Assembly: GCA_963811605.1 (NCBI GenBank)
Contig: CAWESA010000010.1
Span: forward strand, 1,165,066-1,229,065
From: an uncultured delta proteobacterium
Lineage (GTDB): Bacteria; Desulfobacterota; Binatia; DP-6
DNA: 64,000 nucleotides
Reading direction: 5' to 3'
Shown here: positions 35,127 through 47,092 of the stretch, piece by piece
Layout of the letters: each line of letters starts with the position of its first letter
Position numbering within the stretch: the first letter of the stretch is position 1
Notes under the pieces: generated by a model
Told to the model about the DNA's origin: nothing
Databases searched by the model: none
Seen by the model: the letters and a program-made list of their open reading frames with translations, nothing else
Translations under genes and position numbers: made by a program

Positions 35127-35720
35127 TCACCGCCGGAAGGACCAGCCCAGCATCAGGAGGCCGATGGCGGCGATCCAGCTCCCCGCAACCCGGACCGCCA
35201 CGCGCACCCACAGGGCGCGGATCGCGGTCACCTGACCGGCGAGAAGCGACACGAGCACGAAGAGCGCGGTCGTGACGCCGGCCGCGCCCAGCGGGCTGGC
35301 GCGCGCCGTCGCCAGCTCGATCCCGTTGACGCCGCCGGCGAGCAGGCCGAGCGCCACGGCGAATCCGACCACCAGCGGCAACGGGAGCGCCGCACCGGCG
35401 GCTACCATGCCCCCGAGCGCGATGGTGAGCACGGCCTCCGCCACGGGCGACGTCATCTGCTGGGCGACGAGCAGTCCGATCACGCTGCCCGTGAGCCACG
35501 CGGCGGGGAGTGCGAACAGCACGGCGCGGCCGAAGCGTGGGCCATGCAGGCCCGCGAGCAACGCCAGCGCGACGACGGGCAGCAGCTCCTGCGGCGTGAC
35601 GAAGAGGTGCGCCAGCCCGTCGTAGAACGGGCCGAAGCCGGTGCTCAGCAGGTGCGCGTGCGCCCGCGACGGGGCGGCGAAGCCGGCGGCGAGCGCGAGC
35701 AGCACGGCTGGCCGGCGCAT
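35127..35720 (-). CDS. HupE/UreJ-family membrane protein (diverged paralog)
   Basis: Signal peptide then HAHLLSTGFGPFYDGLAHLF (GF..G..H motif), six hydrophobic helices, 197 aa. Start 3 nt after the upstream HupE stop. Confidence 0.55.
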   Translation of the reverse strand: MRRPAVLLALAAGFAAPSRAHAHLLSTGFGPFYDGLAHLFVTPQELLPVVALALLAGLHGPRFGRAVLFALPAAWLTGSVIGLLVAQQMTSPVAEAVLTIALGGMVAAGAALPLPLVVGFAVALGLLAGGVNGIELATARASPLGAAGVTTALFVLVSLLAGQVTAIRALWVRVAVRVAGSWIAAIGLLMLGWSFRR

Positions 35721-35722
35721 GG

Positions 35723-36313
35723 TCACACGCCGGTCCTGCCGACGGCCCGCACGAGGAAGACCACACCCGCCAGCGCGACGCCCGCACCGGCCACCCGCAG
35801 CGCCATCCGCCCGATCGGCCAGCGATGCGCGAGGCCGAGGCCGATGCCCGTGGCGTGGATCGTTCCCGTCGCGATCACGAAGCCGATGCTGTAGAGGATC
35901 GCGTCCGCTCCCGGGGGCAGCTCGGTGCCATGGGCGTTGCCGTGGAAGACCGCGAAGAAGCCGACGATCAGCGCGGCGAGCCACAGCCCCGGGCGCGCCT
36001 CGATGGACACCGCAAGCCCGAGCGCGATGGCCGAGAGGGCGATCCCGACCTCGAGCCCCGGGAGGGTCACGCCCATGAGGCCCAGCATCCCGCCGAAGGC
36101 CATCACCATCGGGAAGGTGACGGGGAGGAGCCACATCGCCGGCGCCCCGAGCTGCGCTCCCCACAGCCCGACGGCGAGCATCGCGAGCACGTGATCGAGA
36201 CCCGACACGGGATGCAGCAGGCCGCTGGTGAAGCCGAGCGCCTCGCCACCGCGCGTGTGCGCCAGCGCGGGTGATCCGAGTGACAGCAGCACGAGCAACG
36301 CGAGGCGGGTCAT
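35723..36313 (-). CDS. HupE/UreJ-family Ni/Co transporter-like membrane protein
   Basis: AHTRGGEALGFTSGLLHPVSGLDHVLAMLAVGLWGAQ and FFAVFHGNAHGTE are canonical HupE/UreJ motifs. 196 aa. Start abuts the upstream stop. Confidence 0.75.
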   Translation of the reverse strand: MTRLALLVLLSLGSPALAHTRGGEALGFTSGLLHPVSGLDHVLAMLAVGLWGAQLGAPAMWLLPVTFPMVMAFGGMLGLMGVTLPGLEVGIALSAIALGLAVSIEARPGLWLAALIVGFFAVFHGNAHGTELPPGADAILYSIGFVIATGTIHATGIGLGLAHRWPIGRMALRVAGAGVALAGVVFLVRAVGRTGV

Positions 36314-37314
36314 CGCACCATGCCGAGGAGGAGCGCCGTCCGCTGGATGGTCCAGAACGCCCCCAGCGAGCCGACCGCGTACCCCGGCAGCAGCTCCACC
36401 CAGCGCGGCCACCTGATCTGTAGCTGGCGAAACGAGCGCTCGAGCAGGAGGATCAGGAGGATGAACGTGACCTGGCCGATCTCGACGCCGGCGTTGAAGC
36501 TCACGAGCGCGAGCGGCAGCTCGCTGCGCGGCAGCCCGGCGCTGGTCAGCGCGCCGGCGAAGCCGAAGCCGTGCAGCAGCCCGAAGAGGAAGGCGACGAT
36601 CCAGGGCTTGCGGATCGTCAGACTGGTCTCGCCCCGCCACGACCGCACGATCTCCGGCCCGAGGAAGAGGATGCTGAGCGCGATGGCGGCGTTCAGCGGG
36701 AGCAGCGGCGCGTTGGCGTAGCCGAGCGTCGCGATCGCGAGCGTGATGCTGTGAGCGATCGTGAACGCCGTCACGGTCTCGATCAGCATCCAGCGGTCCT
36801 TCACGATCAGCAGCAGCCCCAGCACGAAGAGGAGATGATCCACGCCGAAGGCGATGTGCTGGATGCCGTGCAGCAGGTAGGTGCCCGCGAGCGCCAGGCG
36901 CCCCTGGGACGCGGCGATCTCCACCCAGGGCTGGGACGGGGTGACCAGCGTGGTGGAGCTCCCGCCGTCGGCCGTCTCCACGCGGACGAGCACGTCCGTG
37001 ATGGTTCCCTGGAGCCCGACGAACTCGATGCGCTTCCCGGCGAGCCCGGCTTCGCCGGTGTCGATCGTGCGCCGCTCCACCAGCGAGTCCGTGAGCTCCT
37101 GCACGATCGGCTCGCCGACCTCGCGCACGCCCTCCGGGAGCCCGAGCACGACGGGGAGGCGCATGCCGGAGAGCACCGGCGTGCGCCACAGCAGGGTCCA
37201 GCGCGCCGGGCCGACTTCCCGGACCTCGAGCAAGGCGGGGCGCACCTCGTGCGCGCGAGCCGCGGGCGTCGCCGCGAGCACCCCGAGTGCCAGGGCGATC
37301 AGGATGCGGCTCAT
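36310..37314 (-). CDS. HupE/UreJ-like membrane protein with ~140-aa N-terminal periplasmic domain
   Basis: Signal peptide MSRILIALALGVLAATPAARA, soluble domain, then HGIQHIAFGVDHLLFVLGLLLIV and LLHGFGFAGAL matching the H-x4-G-x-DH and HG motifs of HupE. Confidence 0.6.
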   Translation of the reverse strand: MSRILIALALGVLAATPAARAHEVRPALLEVREVGPARWTLLWRTPVLSGMRLPVVLGLPEGVREVGEPIVQELTDSLVERRTIDTGEAGLAGKRIEFVGLQGTITDVLVRVETADGGSSTTLVTPSQPWVEIAASQGRLALAGTYLLHGIQHIAFGVDHLLFVLGLLLIVKDRWMLIETVTAFTIAHSITLAIATLGYANAPLLPLNAAIALSILFLGPEIVRSWRGETSLTIRKPWIVAFLFGLLHGFGFAGALTSAGLPRSELPLALVSFNAGVEIGQVTFILLILLLERSFRQLQIRWPRWVELLPGYAVGSLGAFWTIQRTALLLGMVR

Positions 37315-37340
37315 CGAACCGCCGCGGCCGCCGCTGCGCA

Positions 37341-38186
37341 TCAGAACGCGAACCCGACCGCCATCAGCGGGCCGCGCAGCTGCAGGGCGAGGTCGTTCCC
37401 GGCTCCGAAATCGTGATTGAACCCGACCACCCGGTAGCCCGCCTCGAGCCAGGGCTGGGTGCCCCAGGGGGACCAGTCGAACCAGTACCGGATGTCGCCG
37501 AGGAAGCTCCAGTTCAGCCGGGAGCCGCCGGGAAGGCCGCCCAGGTCGCCGCGGAAGTCGAACGAGAAGTGGTCGTCGACCGGGATCTCCCAGCGCAGAC
37601 CGAGCATGGGGGTGGCCGTCGTGAAGCTGCGCGAGACGCTGCGGCCGCCGCCCTGGATGCCGCCCACCACGCCCGCCGAGGCCTCGAGGTCGACCCCCAG
37701 GTGGACGATGCGGGTGCCGAGATAGACGCCGAGCGAGATCGGACGCCGCCATGCGGGAACGCGATACTCGACCAGCTCGTAGCCCACGGCGACGTCCGCG
37801 ATCACCGGCCTGAGCCGTGCCGTCGCCCCGACCTGCACGGTGCAGCAGAACCGGGTGGGAACGCGCTCGCTCGCGCTCGTGTCGAGGAAGCCACCATAGG
37901 CATCCGCGAACAAGCTCCAGCGATCGTACCGGGCCGCGAAGTAGCCGCCGAGCGTGAATGCGTCGCCGTGCCACAGCAGCGTCAGGACGTCGCCGATCGT
38001 GGTGTCGACCGTGGCGGTGCGTCCCTTCACCTCGATCGTGCCGAACGTCCCCGGCAGCCAGGCGTACGGCATGACCTCGAACTGCCAGCCGGGAGCCTGC
38101 TCCTCCTCCGCGGCGCGGGCTGGCGCGGCGGCCACGAGGATCGCGATTCCGAGCAGCATCGTGCGGATGGCCGAGGGCATCGTCAT
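37341..38186 (-). CDS. outer-membrane beta-barrel protein (hypothetical)
   Basis: Signal peptide MTMPSAIRTMLLGIAILVAAAPARA, alternating amphipathic strands, terminal aromatic ...LMAVGFAF. Confidence 0.6.
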   Translation of the reverse strand: MTMPSAIRTMLLGIAILVAAAPARAAEEEQAPGWQFEVMPYAWLPGTFGTIEVKGRTATVDTTIGDVLTLLWHGDAFTLGGYFAARYDRWSLFADAYGGFLDTSASERVPTRFCCTVQVGATARLRPVIADVAVGYELVEYRVPAWRRPISLGVYLGTRIVHLGVDLEASAGVVGGIQGGGRSVSRSFTTATPMLGLRWEIPVDDHFSFDFRGDLGGLPGGSRLNWSFLGDIRYWFDWSPWGTQPWLEAGYRVVGFNHDFGAGNDLALQLRGPLMAVGFAF

Positions 38187-38189
38187 TGC

Positions 38190-39020
38190 CTACTTCGGGA
38201 ACAGGAACTGCACCTGGAAGCGCAGCTGCCAGTCCGGGCCGAAGCTCGGGGTGAGCGCGTTGTAGTACGCCTGCAACGACGTGTTGACCGGCAGCTTGGC
38301 GAGATCGCCCAGCGCCTCACCTCCGGGCAGAGCGCCGAGCCGGAACGTCCTGCCGCCGCCGAGCCCGAGCGGGACGGTCCACTGGTCGCCCTTCGAGGCC
38401 GTCCAGTCGGCCGTCAAGATGGGAGCGGTCGTGGCGTACCATCCCTTGCCGAAGTTGTAGTTCACGAACGGCTGCATGAGCAGCAAGTTCACGTCGTGAT
38501 CGCTCCAGCCGGCGAACGACCACTGGTTGTTGACCAGCATGCCGACCACCCACGGGCCCTGCATGGTGAGCGCCACGGCGGACGGCCCGGCGCTCCACTT
38601 GCCGCTGCCCAGCTCCGTGCTGGTCGCGGTCGGGAACGTGAAGGTCGGTCCGGCGCCCCAGATGAACGTCTCGGAACCGACCGGTGACAGGAACAGCGTC
38701 GGGTTGATGTCGCCGAGGCCGAAGGCGTGGTCGATGCCTGGCGCCAGCGACGGCTGGTTGATGATGGGCATGATCGTCCGCGTGATGAGGTTCCAGCTGT
38801 CACCGAGCTTGATCGGGATGACCGGCTGGACGTTCAGGACCCACACCGTCCGGTTCTCCGGCCCGCTGTTGAAGTTGAAGTTGTTCTGGAACGGGACGCT
38901 GATGAGATCGGCGACGGGGTTCTGCGTCTGCTTCGCGAGGTCGGTGTCGCTGTCGTCTGCCCCCGCCGGCGCGACGAGCGCGAGCGCGACCAGGCCCACG
39001 GTAATCCAGGTTCTCCGCAT
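38190..39020 (-). CDS. outer-membrane transporter-like beta-barrel (MetA-pathway/PF13557-like)
   Basis: Signal peptide MRRTWITVGLVALALVAPAGA, NPVADLISVPFQNNFNF, C-terminal ...LRFQVQFLFPK. Start 4 nt from the downstream gene. Confidence 0.6.
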   Translation of the reverse strand: MRRTWITVGLVALALVAPAGADDSDTDLAKQTQNPVADLISVPFQNNFNFNSGPENRTVWVLNVQPVIPIKLGDSWNLITRTIMPIINQPSLAPGIDHAFGLGDINPTLFLSPVGSETFIWGAGPTFTFPTATSTELGSGKWSAGPSAVALTMQGPWVVGMLVNNQWSFAGWSDHDVNLLLMQPFVNYNFGKGWYATTAPILTADWTASKGDQWTVPLGLGGGRTFRLGALPGGEALGDLAKLPVNTSLQAYYNALTPSFGPDWQLRFQVQFLFPK

Positions 39021-39027
39021 CGGCCCC

Positions 39028-39870
39028 TCACGCCGCCGGACAGGAGCGCACGCAGCCGACGTACTGCTGCTCGCAGGCCGTCAACGCCGGCGCCTGTGCG
39101 CTCTCCGCGCCGGTGCGGCAGATGAACGCATTCGTTTGGCTGGTCTCGACGCAGTCCGCGAGCGCCGCGCTGCCGGCGGGATTGGACGCCTCGCACGCGG
39201 TGGCCGCCGCGCGCCGCTCGGCGTCGCACATCGCGAATGCCACCACGAGCGCGGAACGCACCGGCGCATTGCAGGTCGTGCGATCCGCGCGGCAGGTCTC
39301 GGTGCAGCCGGAGTCCTTGTTGCGGCACCCGCTCGTATCGGCGTTGGCGATCCGGTTGCACGCCGCGTATGCCGAGGATCGCGTGCGGCGCGCCTGGATC
39401 TCGCACAGCCGCGCGCCCGCCGGCGGCTCGCCGGGGCCGCAGCGCTCCGTGCACGCGTCGAACTCGGCACGGCACGCGCGCAGCTCGGGGGCGGTCTGCC
39501 CGCGGACGCGGTTTCGGCACTGGAACCCCGCGACGCGGGCGTCGTCGATGCAGTGCACCCGCTGCTTCTTCTCGGTCGGGAACTGCCTGGCGCAGCCGGC
39601 GATCGCCAGCTGCTGCTGGCCGAGGCACGCGGCGACCGCCGGCCCGGCGCCGGTCGCGGCGTCGCAGTCGTTCTCCAGGGTCGCACACGCCTCGACACAT
39701 GCCGGGTCGCGATCGCGGCACAGCTGGCGGTCGAGCGCGAAGCCGTCGCGGGCGGCGCGGCGGCATTCCACGTAGTCGGTGCGCGCGGCCTCGAGGCACG
39801 GGTCGCTGCACACCCGGGCGAGTGCCAGCGGTGTCCCCAGGACGGCGAGCAGGAGCGCGAGGACACGCAT
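39028..39870 (-). CDS. Cys-rich secreted protein with internal repeats
   Basis: MRVLALLLAVLGTPLALA signal peptide. About 30 Cys in repeated C-x(n)-C-x3-C modules (CRDRDPACVEACATLENDCDA..., CRAEFDACTERCG..., CRNKDSGCTETCRADRTTC...). Confidence 0.55.
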   Translation of the reverse strand: MRVLALLLAVLGTPLALARVCSDPCLEAARTDYVECRRAARDGFALDRQLCRDRDPACVEACATLENDCDAATGAGPAVAACLGQQQLAIAGCARQFPTEKKQRVHCIDDARVAGFQCRNRVRGQTAPELRACRAEFDACTERCGPGEPPAGARLCEIQARRTRSSAYAACNRIANADTSGCRNKDSGCTETCRADRTTCNAPVRSALVVAFAMCDAERRAAATACEASNPAGSAALADCVETSQTNAFICRTGAESAQAPALTACEQQYVGCVRSCPAA

Positions 39871-39892
39871 GGAGCCGGGCGACGAGACGCAG

Positions 39893-40240
39893 CTAGCGCT
39901 GTGGCTGGAACCTGTCCCGGGGGTCCGCCGCGAAGCAGGTCGACGTCCCCTCCTGGCACAGGACGACGTACGTCGTGCGCTGGTTGCAGCCCGCGACACC
40001 CACCGTGTACTCGACCCGGTTGAGGCCCATCACGAACGGTCCCTGGATGGCGGGCTGGATGTAGTCCTGCGACAGCACGGTCCCGGTCGCCGACGGACAG
40101 TTGAGATCGAATCGGCCGCGCTCCAGCGCCGCCTGGATGGCGGCGGGCTGCCGGCTGGCGAGCTGCTGCGATTGCGTCGCGCAGCCCGCCACGATAGCCG
40201 CCGCGACACCGAATGCCGCCACGTCCCATGATTTCACCAT
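39893..40240 (-). CDS. small lipoprotein
   Basis: AGGAGGG RBS; lipobox AAAIVAGC; 115 aa with 4 further Cys. Confidence 0.55.
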   Translation of the reverse strand: MVKSWDVAAFGVAAAIVAGCATQSQQLASRQPAAIQAALERGRFDLNCPSATGTVLSQDYIQPAIQGPFVMGLNRVEYTVGVAGCNQRTTYVVLCQEGTSTCFAADPRDRFQPQR

Positions 40241-40415
40241 CCCCGGGTTCCCTCCTGAGAGCCCCAGCGATAGCCCGGGCTCGCGGGGACGTCTTGCCAT
40301 CTTGCGCCAGCCCCACGCAACGTCGCCATCGTGCACGCCGGCGTTACCCGGCAAGACTCGCACCGCAGCGAGCCGTCGCCTTGCGCGCAGGTTCGTGGGC
40401 CACGTAGGAGGCGGC

Positions 40416-41150
40416 ATGCACAGCAGCCACCACGGGGGCCGCGCCCAGCGCGACGGCTCGCTCGAGCTCGTGCTGACGGGCAAGCGGCTGCCGAAGTTCG
40501 GCCTCCTGCTCGGTGCCATGCTGGCGGAGCTCACGCTCTCGCCCTTCATCGCGATGATCCCCGGCGGGATCGTCGTCGTGCAGGGACTCACCACGCTCGT
40601 CCTCCTGGCGGCGCTGGCGGTCGCGGGTCCGCATCGCATCGCCGTCGTGCTCTTCACCGTCGCGCTCCTCTTTCACGTGGTGGCGAGCGTCGCGGAGGGC
40701 TCGTCACTGGCGACGATATCGCCCGCGTTCCGCCTCGCATTCCTCTGCTACGTGGTCTGGCTCGTCGTCCGGCGCGTGCTCGCCGATCGCGCCGTGACGC
40801 TGGACACCGTCGCCGGCGCGGCGTGCGCCTACATGCTCCTCGGGCTGGTGTGGGGGGAGCTCTTCCTGCTGATCGAGCGGCTACGGCCGGGCTCGCTGCA
40901 CGTGCCCGCCACCTGGATCGAAGGTCCGGGTCGAACGCTGCGAACGACGCTCGTGTATTTCAGCTTCGCCACCCTGACGACGCTCGGGTACGGCGAGATC
41001 CACCCGACCGACGCCGTGGGGGGCAGCATCTGTGCCGCGGAGGCTCTGGTCGGCCAGCTCTACCTGGCGATCATGATCGCCCGCATGGTCGGACTGCACA
41101 CCGCGCGGCAGACGACGGACGACGGCCCCGCTCCCGGCCAGGCGCCATGA
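40416..41150 (+). CDS. K+ channel-like membrane protein (Ion_trans_2 pore, TLGYG filter)
   Basis: AGGAGG RBS, ATG. Four N-terminal TM helices, a pore helix and selectivity filter FATLTTLGYGEI, and an inner helix. No cytoplasmic gating domain. Confidence 0.7.
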   Translation: MHSSHHGGRAQRDGSLELVLTGKRLPKFGLLLGAMLAELTLSPFIAMIPGGIVVVQGLTTLVLLAALAVAGPHRIAVVLFTVALLFHVVASVAEGSSLATISPAFRLAFLCYVVWLVVRRVLADRAVTLDTVAGAACAYMLLGLVWGELFLLIERLRPGSLHVPATWIEGPGRTLRTTLVYFSFATLTTLGYGEIHPTDAVGGSICAAEALVGQLYLAIMIARMVGLHTARQTTDDGPAPGQAP

Positions 41151-42421
41151 GCAACGCGTCCGGAGGAAGCGCCGCCGTCGCCGCGGCGCGCCTGCTCGAG
41201 TGCGAGGACTGCGCGCTCCTGCACCGGGTGCGACCCATCGCCGAGGACTCGCGCGCGACGTGCGGCCGCTGCGGCGCGCTGCTGTTCGCCCACAAGCGCG
41301 ACGCGCTGCAACGCTCGACGGCGCTCTATCTGGCGGCGCTCATCCTGTGGGGGGTGGCCAACGGTCTCCCGTTCCTCACCTTCGAGCTCGAGGGTCGCAG
41401 GCAGCCGAGCCTGCTCATCTCGGGGCCGCTGAGCCTCTACCGCGACGGGCTGTGGGAGCTCGCGGCCATCGTCTTCCTCTTCGTCATCGCCTTTCCGCTG
41501 CTGCGGATCGTCACCAGCCTCTGCGTGCTCCTCCCGCTCCAGGCCGGGCGGCGACCGCGCTGGCTCGCGTCGCTGTTCCGCTTCGTCGACGCGATCCATC
41601 CGTGGGCGATGGTGGAGGTGTTCCTCCTCGGCGTGCTGGTCGCCTACTCGAAGCTGGTCGATCTCGCCACCATCGTCGTCGGACCGGCCCTCGTCGCCTT
41701 CGTGGGCCTGATGGTCGCGCTCGTGGCGGCGCGATCGGCGCTCGACGTCGACGAGGTGTGGGAGCGCATCCAGCCGTCGCCGCCGGCGCCCCCTGCGGGC
41801 CCATCCGACCCGCTCCTGATCGGGTGCCACGGCTGTCACCGGGTCTGCCGGGTTCCCGCCCCGCCGGCGACCGGCACCCCGCGGTGCCCGCGCTGTGGAA
41901 CGCGGCTGCATCGCCGCAAGCCGAACAGCCTGAGCCGGTCGTGGGCGCTGGTGCTCGCCGCGCTGATCCTCTACGTGCCGGCCAATGTCTACCCCGTCAT
42001 GACGTTCGTCTCGTTCGGGCGCGGCGCCCCCTCCACGATCCTGGGCGGCGTGAGCGAGCTCGTCGAGGCCGGCATGTGGCCGCTCGCCGCCGTCGTCTTC
42101 CTCGCCAGCATCACCGTGCCGGTCCTGAAGCTCATCGGCCTCTCCGTGCTCCTCATCTCGGTCCGGCGGCGGTCGCACTCGCAGACGCGCCAGCGGACCA
42201 TGCTCTACCGCATCGTCGAGGGCGTCGGCCGCTGGTCGATGATCGACATCTTCACGCTCGCGATCCTCGCCGCCCTCGTCCAGCTCGGCTCCCTCGCCAC
42301 CATCCAGCCTGGCCCCGGCGCGATCGCGTTCTGCGCCGTCGTGGTCCTCACCATGTTCGCCGCCATGGCCTTCGACCCGCGTCTGCTGTGGGACGCGGCA
42401 GGAGCGAATCATGACCGATGA
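41147..42421 (+). CDS. pqiA: paraquat-inducible protein A (two-repeat PqiA)
   Basis: ATGA overlap with the channel gene. Two repeats each with a Cys4 zinc-ribbon (CEDCALL...CGRCG; CHGCHRV...CPRCG) followed by paired TM helices. Confidence 0.8.
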   Translation: MSNASGGSAAVAAARLLECEDCALLHRVRPIAEDSRATCGRCGALLFAHKRDALQRSTALYLAALILWGVANGLPFLTFELEGRRQPSLLISGPLSLYRDGLWELAAIVFLFVIAFPLLRIVTSLCVLLPLQAGRRPRWLASLFRFVDAIHPWAMVEVFLLGVLVAYSKLVDLATIVVGPALVAFVGLMVALVAARSALDVDEVWERIQPSPPAPPAGPSDPLLIGCHGCHRVCRVPAPPATGTPRCPRCGTRLHRRKPNSLSRSWALVLAALILYVPANVYPVMTFVSFGRGAPSTILGGVSELVEAGMWPLAAVVFLASITVPVLKLIGLSVLLISVRRRSHSQTRQRTMLYRIVEGVGRWSMIDIFTLAILAALVQLGSLATIQPGPGAIAFCAVVVLTMFAAMAFDPRLLWDAAGANHDR

Positions 42422-43994
42422 CATCTCCCATGTGGTCGTCGAGCGCCGACGCGGCCTCCCGCTCGTCTGGGTGATCCCGCTGCTCGCGGCGGCGATCGGC
42501 GCCTGGCTCGCCTACACGGCCTGGTCGCGCAAGGGTCCCACGATCACCCTCACCTTCGAGGCCGCGCAGGGCCTCCAGCCGGGCACCTCGCCGATCAAGT
42601 ACCGCGACGTGGAGATGGGCGTCGTCAAGACGGTCGACCTGAGCCCGGACCTCACGCACGTCGTGGTGACGGCGGAGATGAAGAAGAGCGCGACGGAGCA
42701 CCTGCGCGAGGGCACCCAGTTCTGGATCGAGAGCGTGCGCCTGAGCGCGTCGGGCGTCTCCGGTCTCGGCACCCTCCTCTCGGGCGTCTACATCGGCATG
42801 TCGCCAGGCGAGGGAAAGCCGACCCGGCGGTTCACCGGCCTCGAGCAGGCCCCCGTGCTGACGGTGAACCAGCCCGGGCGGAAGTTCCTCCTGCGGGCCG
42901 ACAGGCTCGGCTCCCTCTCCGCCGGCTCGCCGATCTACTTCCGGGGTATCCCGGCGGGCGAGGTCCTCGGCTACGACCTCGACCGCGACGGACAGGGCGT
43001 GAGCATCTACGCCTTCGTGCACGCGCCGTACGATGCGCTGGTGCGCGACCAGTCGCACTTCTGGAACGCCAGTGGCATCGACATGTCGGTCGGCACGAGC
43101 GGGCTCACCGTGCGGACCGAATCGCTGGCCGCCATCGTCGAGGGCGGCATCGCCTTCGACACGCCGGTCTCCGCCAGCACGGGCGAGCCGAGCAAGGACG
43201 GCGCCACGTTCGGTCTGTATCGCTCCTTCGAGAGCATCAAGGAGGCGCAGTTCACGACCAAGGTCCCCTTCCTCATCTACTTCGAGGGCACGGTCGGGGG
43301 CCTGTCCCCCGGCGCGCCGGTCAACTTCCGGGGCATCCAGATCGGCGAGGTGAAGGACGTGCGCCTGGAGATCGACGTGAACACCTACATGATTCGGCTG
43401 CCGGTGCTCATCGACATCGAGCCGCAGCGCATCAGCGTCGTCGGCTCGATGGTGCCGCTGGCGCATCAGGAGCACATGGCCAGATTCGTCGAGCAGGGCA
43501 TGCGGGCGCAGCTACGCTCGGGCAACCTTCTGACCGGCTCGCAGGTAGTGGCACTCGACTTCTTCCCGAAAGCGCCGGCCGAGCATCTGACCTACGCCGA
43601 CGGCTATGCCGTGATCCCGGCCGTTCCGTCGCAGACCGCGGAGCTGATGGACAAGGCCACCGCCTTCATCGACAACCTGTCGAAGGCGCCGATCGCGCAG
43701 CTCGTGACCGACCTGCGCGCCACCGTCGACAACGTGAACCGGCTCGTCGGCTCCGGCCCGGACAACGGCGTGGGACCGTTGCTGGACGGGGCACGCGCCA
43801 CGCTGGCGCAGGCCGACGCGACGCTCAAGTCGGCAGACGGGGTGATCGGCCCCGACTCGGCGCTGCGCTACGACATGGCCAACCTGTTCCAGGAGCTGAC
43901 CCGCATGTCACGCTCGCTGCGAACGCTCGCCGACTATCTCGAGAACAACCCCAACGCGCTCATCTTCGGCAAGGGAAAATCGGGAGAAAAATGA
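42411..43994 (+). CDS. pqiB: paraquat-inducible protein B (multi-MCE domain)
   Basis: N-terminal TM LPLVWVIPLLAAAIGAWLAY, then three MCE-like domains (ITLTFEAAQGLQPGTSPIKYRDVEMG...) and a C-terminal helical tail. Confidence 0.85.
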   Translation: MTDDISHVVVERRRGLPLVWVIPLLAAAIGAWLAYTAWSRKGPTITLTFEAAQGLQPGTSPIKYRDVEMGVVKTVDLSPDLTHVVVTAEMKKSATEHLREGTQFWIESVRLSASGVSGLGTLLSGVYIGMSPGEGKPTRRFTGLEQAPVLTVNQPGRKFLLRADRLGSLSAGSPIYFRGIPAGEVLGYDLDRDGQGVSIYAFVHAPYDALVRDQSHFWNASGIDMSVGTSGLTVRTESLAAIVEGGIAFDTPVSASTGEPSKDGATFGLYRSFESIKEAQFTTKVPFLIYFEGTVGGLSPGAPVNFRGIQIGEVKDVRLEIDVNTYMIRLPVLIDIEPQRISVVGSMVPLAHQEHMARFVEQGMRAQLRSGNLLTGSQVVALDFFPKAPAEHLTYADGYAVIPAVPSQTAELMDKATAFIDNLSKAPIAQLVTDLRATVDNVNRLVGSGPDNGVGPLLDGARATLAQADATLKSADGVIGPDSALRYDMANLFQELTRMSRSLRTLADYLENNPNALIFGKGKSGEK

Positions 43995-44605
43995 TGCGTT
44001 GCCTGCGCCTCCTCTGCGTGCTCCTGGCCACCTCCATCCTCGGCCACGGCTGCTTCGGCTCGGCCGTCACCAGGTACTACATGCTGTCGAGCGTCGCGCC
44101 CGCGACCGCCACGTCGGTCGAGACGAGCCCCGCGTCGCGCGTGATCGCCGTGGGTCCCGTCTCGATCCCGGACTACGTGGACCGCCCGCAGATCGTCGTG
44201 CGCGAGGGCGCCAACCAGGTGCGGCTCGCCGGCTTCCACAACTGGGCCGGCTCGCTCTCGGACATGGTCGGCCGCGTGCTCCTGGAGGATCTGAGCGCGC
44301 AGATGCCCGACGACCACGTCCTCCCGTTCCCGCAGGGCGGCGCGTCCGTCTTCGACTACCGCGTGGCGGTGCAGCTCAGCCAGTTCGACGTCAGCAGCGC
44401 AGGCGAGGCCGTCGTCGGGGCGAGCTGGCGGGTGTGGGATCGGGCCGGGACGAAGACGCGCCTCACCGCGAGCACGACGACGCGAGCGGTGGCGACGGGC
44501 ACCGGCTACGAGGAGCGCGTGGCGGCCCTCAGCCAGGCGATCGCCGATCTCGCCGGGGACATCGCGCGCAGCCTGCAGCACCTGGACGCGGCGCCGCGGC
44601 ATTGA
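43991..44605 (+). CDS. pqiC: PqiC / ABC-type transport auxiliary lipoprotein (DUF330)
   Basis: ATGA overlap with pqiB. Lipoprotein N-terminus LATSILGHGC; YmbA/PqiC-like length and pattern (RYYML...IAVGPVSIPDYVDRPQIVV). Confidence 0.7.
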   Translation: MMRCLRLLCVLLATSILGHGCFGSAVTRYYMLSSVAPATATSVETSPASRVIAVGPVSIPDYVDRPQIVVREGANQVRLAGFHNWAGSLSDMVGRVLLEDLSAQMPDDHVLPFPQGGASVFDYRVAVQLSQFDVSSAGEAVVGASWRVWDRAGTKTRLTASTTTRAVATGTGYEERVAALSQAIADLAGDIARSLQHLDAAPRH

Positions 44606-44671
44606 ACGGCGTCACGCCGCCATCGGGGGAGCTGGTGGCCTCAGCGCCGTCGTCGGTGGTGAAGACGACGC

Positions 44672-45108
44672 CTACTGCTCGAACGCGAAGACGCGCTTCC
44701 AGTCGTTCTTCATGCTGATCAGCACCCACCCCTTCTTCTTCGCCTCGTCATAGAGCGCCTGGGTGAAGGTGCCGACCCTGGTGTCGGGCAGCCCCTGGGC
44801 CGGACCGTAGGCATACTCGCGCTCGCCGTCGTCGTGCAGCACCAGCATCTCGAGCCGCGCGCCGTCGCCCGCACCGGTGTACTCGAGCATCTGCGGGTCG
44901 CCGGTCGAGTTGCCCGACAGGCCACGGCCGTGGCCGGCTCCTGCGTCCCCGCCCGCGTGCCGACGACCTGCTCCGGCGGGATGCCGACGGGCTCGGATAG
45001 ACACGCACGAAATCCTGCCCGCCGCCGGTGACGATGTAGGTCCTGTAGCCGCTGGCACGCATGTACTCCACGAGGCCAGGGGATCGTGGTCGCCGGACCG
45101 GGTCTCAT
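44672..45108 (-). pseudogene. HAD-IB-like hydrolase remnant, 5'-truncated and frameshifted
   Basis: GAGAGGAG RBS + ATG at 45108. HAD-like segments sit in three different frames: LVEYMRASGYRTYIVTGGGQDFVRVY | SEPVGIPPEQVVGTRAG | AGDGARLEMLVL...WVLISMKNDWKRVFAFEQ. The motif-I/cap half is absent. Confidence 0.45.
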
Positions 45109-45231
45109 GACGCGCTCCTCTCAGTTCTCAAAAGCCGAGCAGCGTGCGGCGCTACGCGTCGCAGGCGATCCGTGGGCCTGGCGCCAGCGCGGGAGGCGCT
45201 CCCCGGCCCAGCCGAGCGCCGCGGGAGGTCA

Positions 45232-45825
45232 CTACTCCACCACGATGTGGGTCACGACGCGCTCGATGCCCGGGGTCTGCAGCGCCACCTGGCGCGCGAT
45301 CTCGACCTGACCCGGGTTCGTCGCCTCGCCCATGATGAACGCCGTGCCGTTCACGACCCGATGCTGGAAGCTCTGCGACGCGATCCCGTCGGCTGCGAGC
45401 AGGTTCACGCCGAGCTCCTTGTTGAGCGCGAAATCTCCGGCCGCGTCGCCGAGCCCGTCACCGGTGGCGACCTGGATGTCGTCGAACACCTCGTGGCCGG
45501 CCGCCACGTCGCGCACCAGCGACACCGCCCTGCGACGACTCGACCAGCGGGACACCACGCCGGTCAGCATGACGCGCCCGAGATAGACGTCGACGTCGAT
45601 GGCAGCCGCCAGCGACGGGGCGTCGGCGAGCAGCTGCTGCTCGATGCGCGTCTTCAGGTCGAGATCGGCCCCCTGCTGCTCCAGCGAGCGGTCGTCCACC
45701 ATGGCGCTCGCCGCGGTGGTGGCCGCCGTCGTGATCAGCATCTGCGGGCATCCCGTGCACCACGGAAGCGCGAGCGCTCCGACGATGATCGCTCCCCTCA
45801 GCGTTCCCCTCTGCATACCGTTCAT
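45232..45825 (-). CDS. BON-domain (OsmY-like) protein, two BON domains
   Basis: Signal/lipobox ALALPWCTGC; DLKTRIEQQLLADAPSLAAAIDVDVYLGRVMLTGVV and GQVEIARQVALQTPGIERVVTHIVV are BON repeats. Confidence 0.65.
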   Translation of the reverse strand: MNGMQRGTLRGAIIVGALALPWCTGCPQMLITTAATTAASAMVDDRSLEQQGADLDLKTRIEQQLLADAPSLAAAIDVDVYLGRVMLTGVVSRWSSRRRAVSLVRDVAAGHEVFDDIQVATGDGLGDAAGDFALNKELGVNLLAADGIASQSFQHRVVNGTAFIMGEATNPGQVEIARQVALQTPGIERVVTHIVVE

Positions 45826-46054
45826 CCTCTCGAGCTTTCGCCGTCACCGGCGCGTTGTCGACGACGGGGTGTACATTCGAACGCTCGCGCGATCTTGCCA
45901 TTGCGCGCCACGGCAGCTTGACGAGTCCGCTAGGCTCGTGAAATGGCACGGCCCGTGAGCGCTGCCATCCCGCTCGTGCGCGCCGCGGCGCTCCGCATCG
46001 TGGCCGGAATTCGTCGAGCACGCGGGCGTACCGGTCGGGCCGCTGCTCGAGCGC

Positions 46055-47092
46055 GTGAAGCTGTCGCCGCGGGCGATCGAGAAGCCGGAGACCCTCGTCC
46101 CGTTCGTCGCCGTCACCCGGCTGCTCGAGCACGCCGCGCGCGACCAGGGCATCGACGACCTCGGGATCAGGCTGCCCGCGACCGTGGCTCAGCTGGGAAC
46201 GTTCGGGCGGCTGATCAGCCAGTCGCTGACGCTGCGGGACGCGCTCGAGACCGCCTACCGCAGCTGGGGGGACTACAACTCGGGGGTACGCACCTGGCTC
46301 GGTCGACGGGGCGATCGGGTGCGCCTGCACCACCAGTTCCTGCACGGCGACGCGCGGGACTGGGGGCAGTACGCGGTCGCGGCGCTGATGACGTATGTGC
46401 GTTTTCTCGCTGCGGTGGCCGGCCCGCACTGGCGTCCGCTCGCCGTCGGGCTCCCGCTCCGTGGACTCCCGGGTCTCCGCGCCGTTCCACTCCTGGCCGA
46501 CGCGCGGATCGATTTCGGCCAGCCCTGGATGAGCGTGACGTTCGCGGCCGACGTGCTCGGCCGACCTCTTCCGCGATTCCCGGGAGGTCACACGTCGAGC
46601 CCGGACACCGCCTGGAATGGCTCCCGGCCTGCCGGCGACGTCGCCGGCGCCGTGGAGCAAATCGTCACCACGATGCTGGGCGACGGGCACCCCGACATCC
46701 GGCTGGTGGCCGAGGCCGTTGGCATGAGCCCCCGCACCCTGCAGCGCCGGCTACAGGGCGAGGGCCTCACCTTCGCCCGTGTCGTGGCGAAGGCGCGATT
46801 GGCCGAGGCGCGACGCTTGCTGGGCGACCCGGCACGCAAGGTCATCGACGTCGCGTTCGACCTCGGGTACTCGGACCACGCCCATTTCACCCGCGCCTTC
46901 GAGCGCTGGATGGGGATCCCGCCGCGCGAGTTCCGGCGCCGTGCGGTCGAGGGGGCGGGGCCGGCCGGACTCACGCGATGGCGACGGGCGCCGCACCGCC
47001 GGCCGCCGACTCGCGCCCACCACGGCGGAGCGCCAGCCGTACCCCGAGGGCGAGCCCGCGCCGGTCGCGGCGGTCGCAGCGCGCGACGATGA
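46055..47092 (+). CDS. AraC-family transcriptional regulator (N-terminus probably disrupted, see findings)
   Basis: C-terminal HTH_18: MSPRTLQRRLQGEGLTFARVVAKARLAEARRLL...LGYSDHAHFTRAFERWMGIPPREFRR. The N-domain continues upstream in another frame (45943 ATG). The 3' ~40 codons are antisense to the IS remnant. Confidence 0.6.
   Translation: MKLSPRAIEKPETLVPFVAVTRLLEHAARDQGIDDLGIRLPATVAQLGTFGRLISQSLTLRDALETAYRSWGDYNSGVRTWLGRRGDRVRLHHQFLHGDARDWGQYAVAALMTYVRFLAAVAGPHWRPLAVGLPLRGLPGLRAVPLLADARIDFGQPWMSVTFAADVLGRPLPRFPGGHTSSPDTAWNGSRPAGDVAGAVEQIVTTMLGDGHPDIRLVAEAVGMSPRTLQRRLQGEGLTFARVVAKARLAEARRLLGDPARKVIDVAFDLGYSDHAHFTRAFERWMGIPPREFRRRAVEGAGPAGLTRWRRAPHRRPPTRAHHGGAPAVPRGRARAGRGGRSARR

Follow-up and report, generated by a model that had tools for sequence, protein, structure and literature searches.

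The window analysed here is a stretch of 64,000 nucleotides (nt) from the genome of an uncultured delta proteobacterium (contig CAWESA010000010.1, positions 1,165,066 to 1,229,065), and within it lies a four-gene operon in which a gene for a predicted potassium-channel pore protein is followed, on the same strand, by pqiA, pqiB and pqiC, the genes of a Pqi-type lipid transport system (Table 1). A first-pass annotation of this DNA had described a membrane protein of 244 amino acids (aa) with a bona fide potassium selectivity filter and no RCK or other cytoplasmic domain, and this description was borne out by the open reading frame (ORF) table, the Pfam and NCBIfam scans and the structural model. 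The stop/start overlap between channel and pqiA and the two overlaps downstream of it, which had also been reported, are present in the raw sequence. A Shine-Dalgarno sequence (GGAGG at 40407-40411) stands 5' of the channel ATG, and the gene after pqiC lies on the opposite strand.

Table 1. Features of the channel-pqiABC operon (positions are those of the window; L089, L090, L091 and L005 are compared loci)
Feature	Position	Strand	Description	Basis
Leader	40392-40415	+	TTCGTGGGCCACGTAGGAGGCGGC, with CGTGG-G-CCACG palindrome and GGAGG	Sequence comparison with L089, L091, L090 and L005
Channel gene	40416-41150	+	ATG at 40416, 244 aa, TGA at 41148-41150	ORF table and raw sequence
Selectivity-filter segment	40971-41000	+	TLTTLGYGEI, aa 186-195 (T186 to I195)	Direct sequence reading
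Stop/start overlap	41147-41150	+	ATGA; channel TGA (41148-41150) and pqiA ATG (41147-41149)	Direct sequence reading
pqiA	41147-42421	+	424 aa, fused two-module type	Pfam/NCBIfam
pqiB	42411-43994	+	527 aa, three MCE (MlaD) domains, 11-nt overlap with pqiA	Pfam/NCBIfam
pqiC	43991-44605	+	204 aa, ABC_trans_aux lipoprotein, 4-nt overlap with pqiB, last gene of the operon	PF03886 and ORF layout

The only Pfam or NCBIfam match of the channel protein is to Ion_trans_2 (PF07885; 35.7 bits against a cut-off of 22.5, aa 177-225). Its AlphaFold2 model, built from the alignment of 32 family members that also served for the analysis of conservation, is confident (pLDDT 86, pTM 0.80) and consists of six membrane helices and a pore loop (P-loop): after about 25 disordered N-terminal residues, helices at 27-46, 51-70, 74-92 and 96-123 precede an outer helix (129-156), a pore helix (175-188) and an inner helix (200-235), beyond which only about ten residues remain, so that the C-terminal tail is nearly nil. 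The outer, pore and inner helices form the fold of a P-loop K+ channel. The first-pass annotation had allowed that structure prediction might reveal no pore-forming topology, and the model instead reveals one. Pfam and NCBIfam scans and the model showed no RCK, cyclic-nucleotide-binding (CNBD) or other soluble domain, and the protein thus does not belong with the ligand-gated types that carry an RCK/TrkA domain (Kch/MthK) or a CNBD (MloK1/SthK). Behind the pore helix stands the K+ signature T-x-G-Y-G (T188-T189-L190-G191-Y192-G193), and across the 32 relatives S183, T186, A210, G213, A222 and V225 are invariant, while L187, T188, T189, G191, Y192, G193 and I195 are nearly so; G213 is a candidate glycine hinge. 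By its match, filter and fold, the protein is a predicted K+-channel pore protein, and it probably assembles as a tetramer. Relatives with two units in tandem (P0351 and others, 410-500 aa) are consistent with such a side-by-side assembly.

A voltage-sensing role, which the first-pass annotation had also suggested, found no support in this analysis. The basic residues of helix 4 (aa 96-123) and its linker are only R106, R119, R120 and R125, an RxxR gating-charge ladder is absent from this helix, and no match to Ion_trans (PF00520) was obtained, which places the protein outside the Kv type. Sequence searches of the PDB matched the pore region alone, and the best whole-chain matches in Foldseek (hERG, HCN, SKOR, SthK and MloK1) were weak, with TM-scores of 0.4-0.48 and E about 1e-2. 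The channel gene is under purifying selection, with a ratio of nonsynonymous to synonymous substitution rates (dN/dS) of 0.28-0.41; pqiC has similar values, and pqiA and pqiB are more tightly constrained (0.18-0.23). In the closest pair (window and L089), the dS of the channel equals that of pqiA. Between the window and L090, the channel dS is 0.77, about twice that of pqiA and pqiB (0.38-0.40), an excess that may reflect different histories or codon-bias effects.

The three genes behind the channel have the components of a PqiABC system, namely a two-module PqiA with zinc ribbons, a three-MCE PqiB encoded behind pqiA and a PqiC-type lipoprotein. PqiA matches PF04403 in two stretches (4e-100) and TIGR00155 with 314.9 bits (cut-off 260.35), and has zinc-ribbon CxxC pairs at aa 19/39 and 227/247, one before each module; it also carries the sequence GRWSMIDIF (aa 361-369, nt 42227-42253), which matches the polar-network motif of LetA. 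PqiB has three Pfam MlaD stretches and scores 423 bits with NF008070, under the equivalog cut-off of 525. PqiC matches PF03886 (ABC_trans_aux) at 4e-44 and 150.5 bits and reaches merely 49.5 against 200 with the pqiC model NF033620; it is, as read from its sequence, a divergent, predicted lipoprotein. Because of scores under the NCBIfam equivalog cut-offs, we regard the Pqi proteins of the window as distant orthologues of E. coli PqiABC.

The adjacency of channel and pqi is conserved among relatives. In seven loci, pqiA comes next after the channel gene and on its strand, namely in the window and, with their channel identities to it, in L089 (81%), L090 (68%), the P0008 contig (67%), L091 (62%), L093 (60%) and L001 (59%); pqiA is fused in L089, L090, the P0008 contig and L091, and split in L093 and L001. 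The window, L089, L090, L091 and L093 have one and the same ATGA junction, and these are all five loci whose DNA shows the direct overlap; L001 has an intergenic gap between channel and pqiA and no ATGA. As the arrangement recurs in relatives with a conserved ATGA junction, it is not a chance feature of this genome, and the concern of the first-pass annotation that the adjacency might prove unique is thereby answered. In a neighbour-joining tree, all pqi-linked channel loci fall into one clade (GC content 0.65-0.72), and the channel adjoins pqi in every informative member; those relatives to which depositors gave a name are Candidatus Binatia, and the window thus probably belongs to that phylum. 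The clade, a lineage of uncultured soil bacteria, is probably a high-GC, Binatia-like one. Twelve residue positions are specific to the channels of this clade, and none points to a function. Outside the four genes, the flanks vary by locus (upstream, for instance, a sigma-54 activator, a serpin, a radical-SAM protein or a small lipoprotein, and on the downstream side MarC or a chromate transporter), and because they differ from locus to locus the conserved unit is the four-gene block rather than the neighbourhood. Both the operon and its lineage-specific, conserved linkage are real.

By their identity matrices, the pqi systems linked to the channel fall into two deeply divided types. In type 1 (window, L089, L090 and L091), PqiA is fused and the PqiB proteins are 80-88% identical; in type 2 (L092, L093, L001 and, more loosely, L005), PqiA is split and the PqiB proteins are 72-88% identical (58-61% for L005). 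Between the types, PqiB is 39-42% and the channel 55-66% identical, and type-1 PqiA resembles alphaproteobacterial PqiA (about 50%) more than it does the PqiA of type 2 (about 43%). The history is either one of old co-divergence with unequal rates or one of exchange of pqi genes, and the channel stayed beside pqi either way. A split pqiA was also seen in L092, L093, L001, L106, L094 and the Sagittula plasmid p1 (L104).

This spread over two types is the strongest argument against mere inherited synteny, because the channel was kept beside pqi throughout. Under that explanation, the adjacency would have hitch-hiked neutrally within one lineage, with no functional relation between channel and Pqi, and the single linked locus found elsewhere (L081, below) would be a coincidence. 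It is true that the strongly linked loci all belong to one clade, that pqi lies beside the channel at just 1 of 60 informative family loci outside it, and that family neighbours are very diverse; we roughly estimate that, with about 1-2 pqiA in every few thousand genes, a single coincidental match among 60-100 loci would arise with a probability of about 0.03-0.1. Nevertheless, the flanking genes turned over while the four-gene block persisted, the channel is still beside pqi after an insertion (L092/L106) or an inversion (L005), and the linkage spans PqiB divergence down to 40% identity. We therefore consider neutral hitch-hiking improbable.

The insertion and the inversion show how far the arrangement can change. 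In the sublineage of L092 and L106-L109, two genes of the opposite strand (DUF7305 and a 171-aa protein) lie behind the channel, and pqi follows about 1.6 kb further; coupled translation is thus not obligatory, since these genes part the channel from pqi. At two of these loci, L106 (11760-12657) and L107 (8697-9594), a gene for a 779-aa mechanosensitive channel of the MscS family starts 8 nt past pqiC. In L005 (6900-10450, one metagenome-assembled genome), a type-2 pqi is inverted and convergent with a type-1-like channel, with at least 8 frame changes and an intact channel ORF; the frame changes may represent nanopore error, misassembly or decay/pseudogenisation.

Beyond the clade, the channel belongs to a large family, of which a profile search of 1.84 billion representatives (clusters at 50% identity) recovered 4,449 proteins at E<=1e-30. 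The top profile matches (P0351-P0370, 410-540 aa) have a bacterial two-pore layout, with two complete channel units one after the other, and P0372 is an EamA-channel fusion. The one pqi-linked locus outside the clade is on a Desulfobacterota-like contig of low GC content (L081/L094), where the channel stands between NhaA and a split pqiA and overlaps each of them by 11 nt. We downgraded it as an independent confirmation of the link to pqi: its split pqiA pair (L094, 6728-7934) is an orphan PqiA with no MCE or PqiC gene nearby, and the conserved partner in its clade, which includes Dissulfuribacter, is NhaA, found directly upstream of the channel in all four sampled members (L094, 4695-6684; L096-L101) and often overlapping it, whereas pqiA is not conserved. 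Judging from gene order, this looks like a conserved NhaA-K+ channel operon. In the sister clade of the pqi-linked channels, represented by L002 (4404-6627) and L003 (4405-6645), the channel gene follows a lone 526-aa Proton_antipo_M (MrpD/NuoL-like) gene by 7-17 nt on the same strand, and AraC-type regulators flank the pair. On the unrelated contigs L027 (2900-5983), L073 (2-1219) and L083 (1-1104), the gene for an AcrB-type RND pump ends 15-39 nt before the channel, again on the same strand. The neighbours of the family are otherwise heterogeneous (88 Pfam families among 98 neighbours). In L026, a gene for an HlyD-type membrane fusion protein lies about 120 nt downstream of the channel and is followed by an RND gene.

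Given such neighbours, the channel might serve as an electrical partner. PqiA-type transporters would then be H+-coupled or sensitive to membrane potential, and a K+ channel would compensate charge or interconvert membrane potential and pH gradient, for Pqi as for the other H+-coupled transporters beside the family. The close spacing behind NhaA, Proton_antipo_M and AcrB-type genes speaks for this idea, as does the GRWSMIDIF sequence retained in the window PqiA, since the corresponding motif GRWSM-psi-D-psi-F belongs to the water-filled polar network of LetA, which has been proposed as a possible proton path (PMC13017536); the energy source of LetA/PqiA transporters is explicitly described as unresolved in the literature. 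Most neighbours of the family are, however, unrelated to transport, transporter genes are common, so that their enrichment here is a putative one, PqiABC equilibrates lipids passively in vitro, and Pqi works without such a channel in Proteobacteria, which together make an electrical partnership unlikely in our judgement.

The idea that the channel was recruited as a regulatory partner of Pqi can also be framed as a physical complex, in which the channel would be a subunit that binds PqiA in the inner membrane and serves regulation or sensing, by analogy with the tetraspanin-like TARP or gamma subunits that sit on P-loop channels. LetA-type proteins have a claudin/tetraspanin-like four-helix module, of which PqiA has two (PMC13017536), and this TARP-like character would fit such binding, as would the conserved, translationally coupled ATGA junction, the linkage to two divergent pqi types, and the separate instance of a channel of the same family overlapping a split pqiA in L081/L094. 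Against a complex, the coupling is lost in L092/L106 and the order inverted in L005, the clade of L094 has NhaA as its conserved partner and its pqiA is without an MCE gene, helix 4 is without a gating-charge ladder, and the channel evolves faster than PqiA and PqiB. Stop/start overlaps are, moreover, common in operons generally. A chimeric channel+PqiA query returned 100 matches, none of which was an Ion_trans_2+PqiA fusion; all were PqiA-only (367-474 aa) apart from one PqiA+MlaD fusion. That fusion is P0307 (619 aa). Taken together, we find a physical complex rather improbable.

Among plasmid and chromid records, pqiA occurs in 107 and a family-like channel in 10, never together, and the 4 annotated pqiA loci that were inspected have no channel. 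On a Burkholderia sp. SFA1 plasmid (L103, 1-6939), pqi is combined with an efflux pump operon: the genes for an RND permease and an outer-membrane factor form one overlapping string with pqiA, pqiB and a gene of the PqiC-like kind. A K+ channel is not a universal Pqi component, as neither adjacency across lineages nor fusion was found in these comparisons, and the channel of the window is a generic member of a large, uncharacterised Ion_trans_2 subfamily that was recruited to a pqi operon.

Upstream of the operon, the window, L089 and L091 share the same leader sequence letter for letter; that of L090, a locus whose upstream gene is a different one, departs from it at a single position, and L005 retains part of it. 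The 27-nt stretch through the channel ATG (40392-40418) is invariant in the first three loci. An inverted repeat, GTCTTGCC ... GGCAAGAC (window 40291-40357 and 40392-40418), with an inner GCGCCA/YGGCG repeat, is kept in the same three loci and sits in the divergent intergenic region. Together with the palindrome, it could be an operator pair or a stem in the 5' untranslated region. As an RNA structure, the upstream repeat was set aside: RNAalifold returned a hairpin, yet the single-sequence z-score was 0.22 and the folding energy ordinary for the base composition. Rfam gave no match at gathering thresholds in the whole window, and no genomic island was seen by base composition. The opposite strand upstream (35130-40231, -) encodes two HupE/UreJ proteins, three secreted proteins without a Pfam match (one of them Cys-rich) and a 112-aa lipoprotein, and this cluster shows synteny with L091 and with the P0008 contig. 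The region downstream of the operon (44675-47092) encodes a BON-domain protein on the - strand (45235-45825) and, on the + strand (46055-47092), an AraC regulator that carries an Arabinose_bd domain.

We hypothesize, with a confidence that stands about midway between doubt and conviction, that channel-pqiA-pqiB-pqiC is a lineage-specific operon through which channel and Pqi are co-produced for a shared response in membrane stress or ion homeostasis, the channel acting in parallel with Pqi and not as an integral part of it. Envelope or membrane perturbation would switch the operon on, and channel and PqiABC would be made from one transcript, with translation of pqiA re-initiating at the channel stop codon. 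Pqi would then redistribute phospholipid between the membranes, while the channel, by conducting K+, would tune the membrane potential, the K+ content or the turgor. We favour a parallel role because channel and pqi stay neighbours in L092/L106-L109 despite the lost coupling, because an MscS-family gene follows pqiC so closely in L106/L107, and because a BON-domain gene lies near the operon of the window. It is favoured also because of the heterogeneous family neighbours, the lack of a channel-PqiA fusion and the 107 pqiA plasmid and chromid records without an adjoining channel, and because pqi is, according to a preprint, a pathway of lipid redistribution that envelope stress induces and that works passively in vitro. 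Of the functional link that the first-pass annotation had proposed, co-regulation under membrane stress thus fits best, whereas a partnership peculiar to Pqi fits less well with a channel family that also occurs beside NhaA, MrpD-like and RND genes, with the absence of fusions, and with the loss of coupling in one sublineage.

Several points weigh against a merely parallel role or leave it less secure. The exact retention of ATGA, and of the channel beside two very different pqi types, could point to a tighter dependency than co-regulation. The stress context of the operon is inferred indirectly, and the organisms of the clade are all uncultured. A promoter and terminator scan of 39900-45000 returned no promoter-like element and one terminator-like element on the wrong strand, no more than in shuffled sequences, although such a scan is uninformative at 70% GC. 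The channel could instead be a dedicated functional partner of PqiA, either as a K+ shunt for H+- or potential-coupled transport or as a pore bound directly, in TARP-like fashion, by the tetraspanin-like PqiA modules, which we see as unlikely. Were it true, the operon would offer the first genomic handle on how LetA/PqiA transporters, whose energy coupling is described as unresolved, are energised or gated; if the link is one of co-regulation only, it enlarges the envelope-stress repertoire of an uncultured phylum only modestly. In either case, a channel joined to pqi across two very divergent types is a natural system for testing whether ion flux or membrane potential is linked to lipid transport, and the analysis brings to light a large family of minimal six-helix K+ channels, as yet uncharacterised, whose members recur in apparent operons with H+-coupled transporters.

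Compared with known channels, the protein of the window has four extra N-terminal transmembrane helices relative to KcsA, the MthK pore, GsuK and KirBac, and is without their RCK, Kir or C-terminal gating domains. It shares the layout of six helices and a P-loop with the six-transmembrane, non-swapped S1-S4 channels (hERG, HCN, KAT1/SKOR, SthK and MloK1) and with Kv channels (KvAP), but superposes on them weakly and differs in that its loops are very short and that an Ion_trans match, RxxR charges in helix 4 and a CNBD are all absent. The TARP and CaV-gamma auxiliary subunits offer an analogy only, in that a four-helix, tetraspanin-like module is encoded beside a P-loop pore protein; PqiA is a component of a lipid transporter and not a channel auxiliary subunit. 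The literature searched links no K+ channel to Pqi, in agreement with the first-pass statement that ion channels are not part of described pqi operons; nothing relevant came from searches for a connection of potassium or mechanosensitive channels with PqiA or with MCE proteins, and that literature describes no pqi operon that begins with a K+ channel gene. Within the LetA/PqiA family, the PqiA of the window is built from two modules, like LetA of the E. coli LetAB system, and has the GRWSM-psi-D-psi-F motif in the same place (361-369), whereas LetB has 6-8 MCE rings and no ion channel partner of LetAB has been described. The closest counterpart is E. coli PqiABC, the paraquat-inducible, MCE-type trans-envelope phospholipid pathway, which has the same components, in the same order and with overlapping genes. 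Described PqiABC operons consist of three genes, whereas in the window these are preceded by a K+ channel gene as first cistron, and a second pqi type, in which PqiA is split, occurs in the clade as well.

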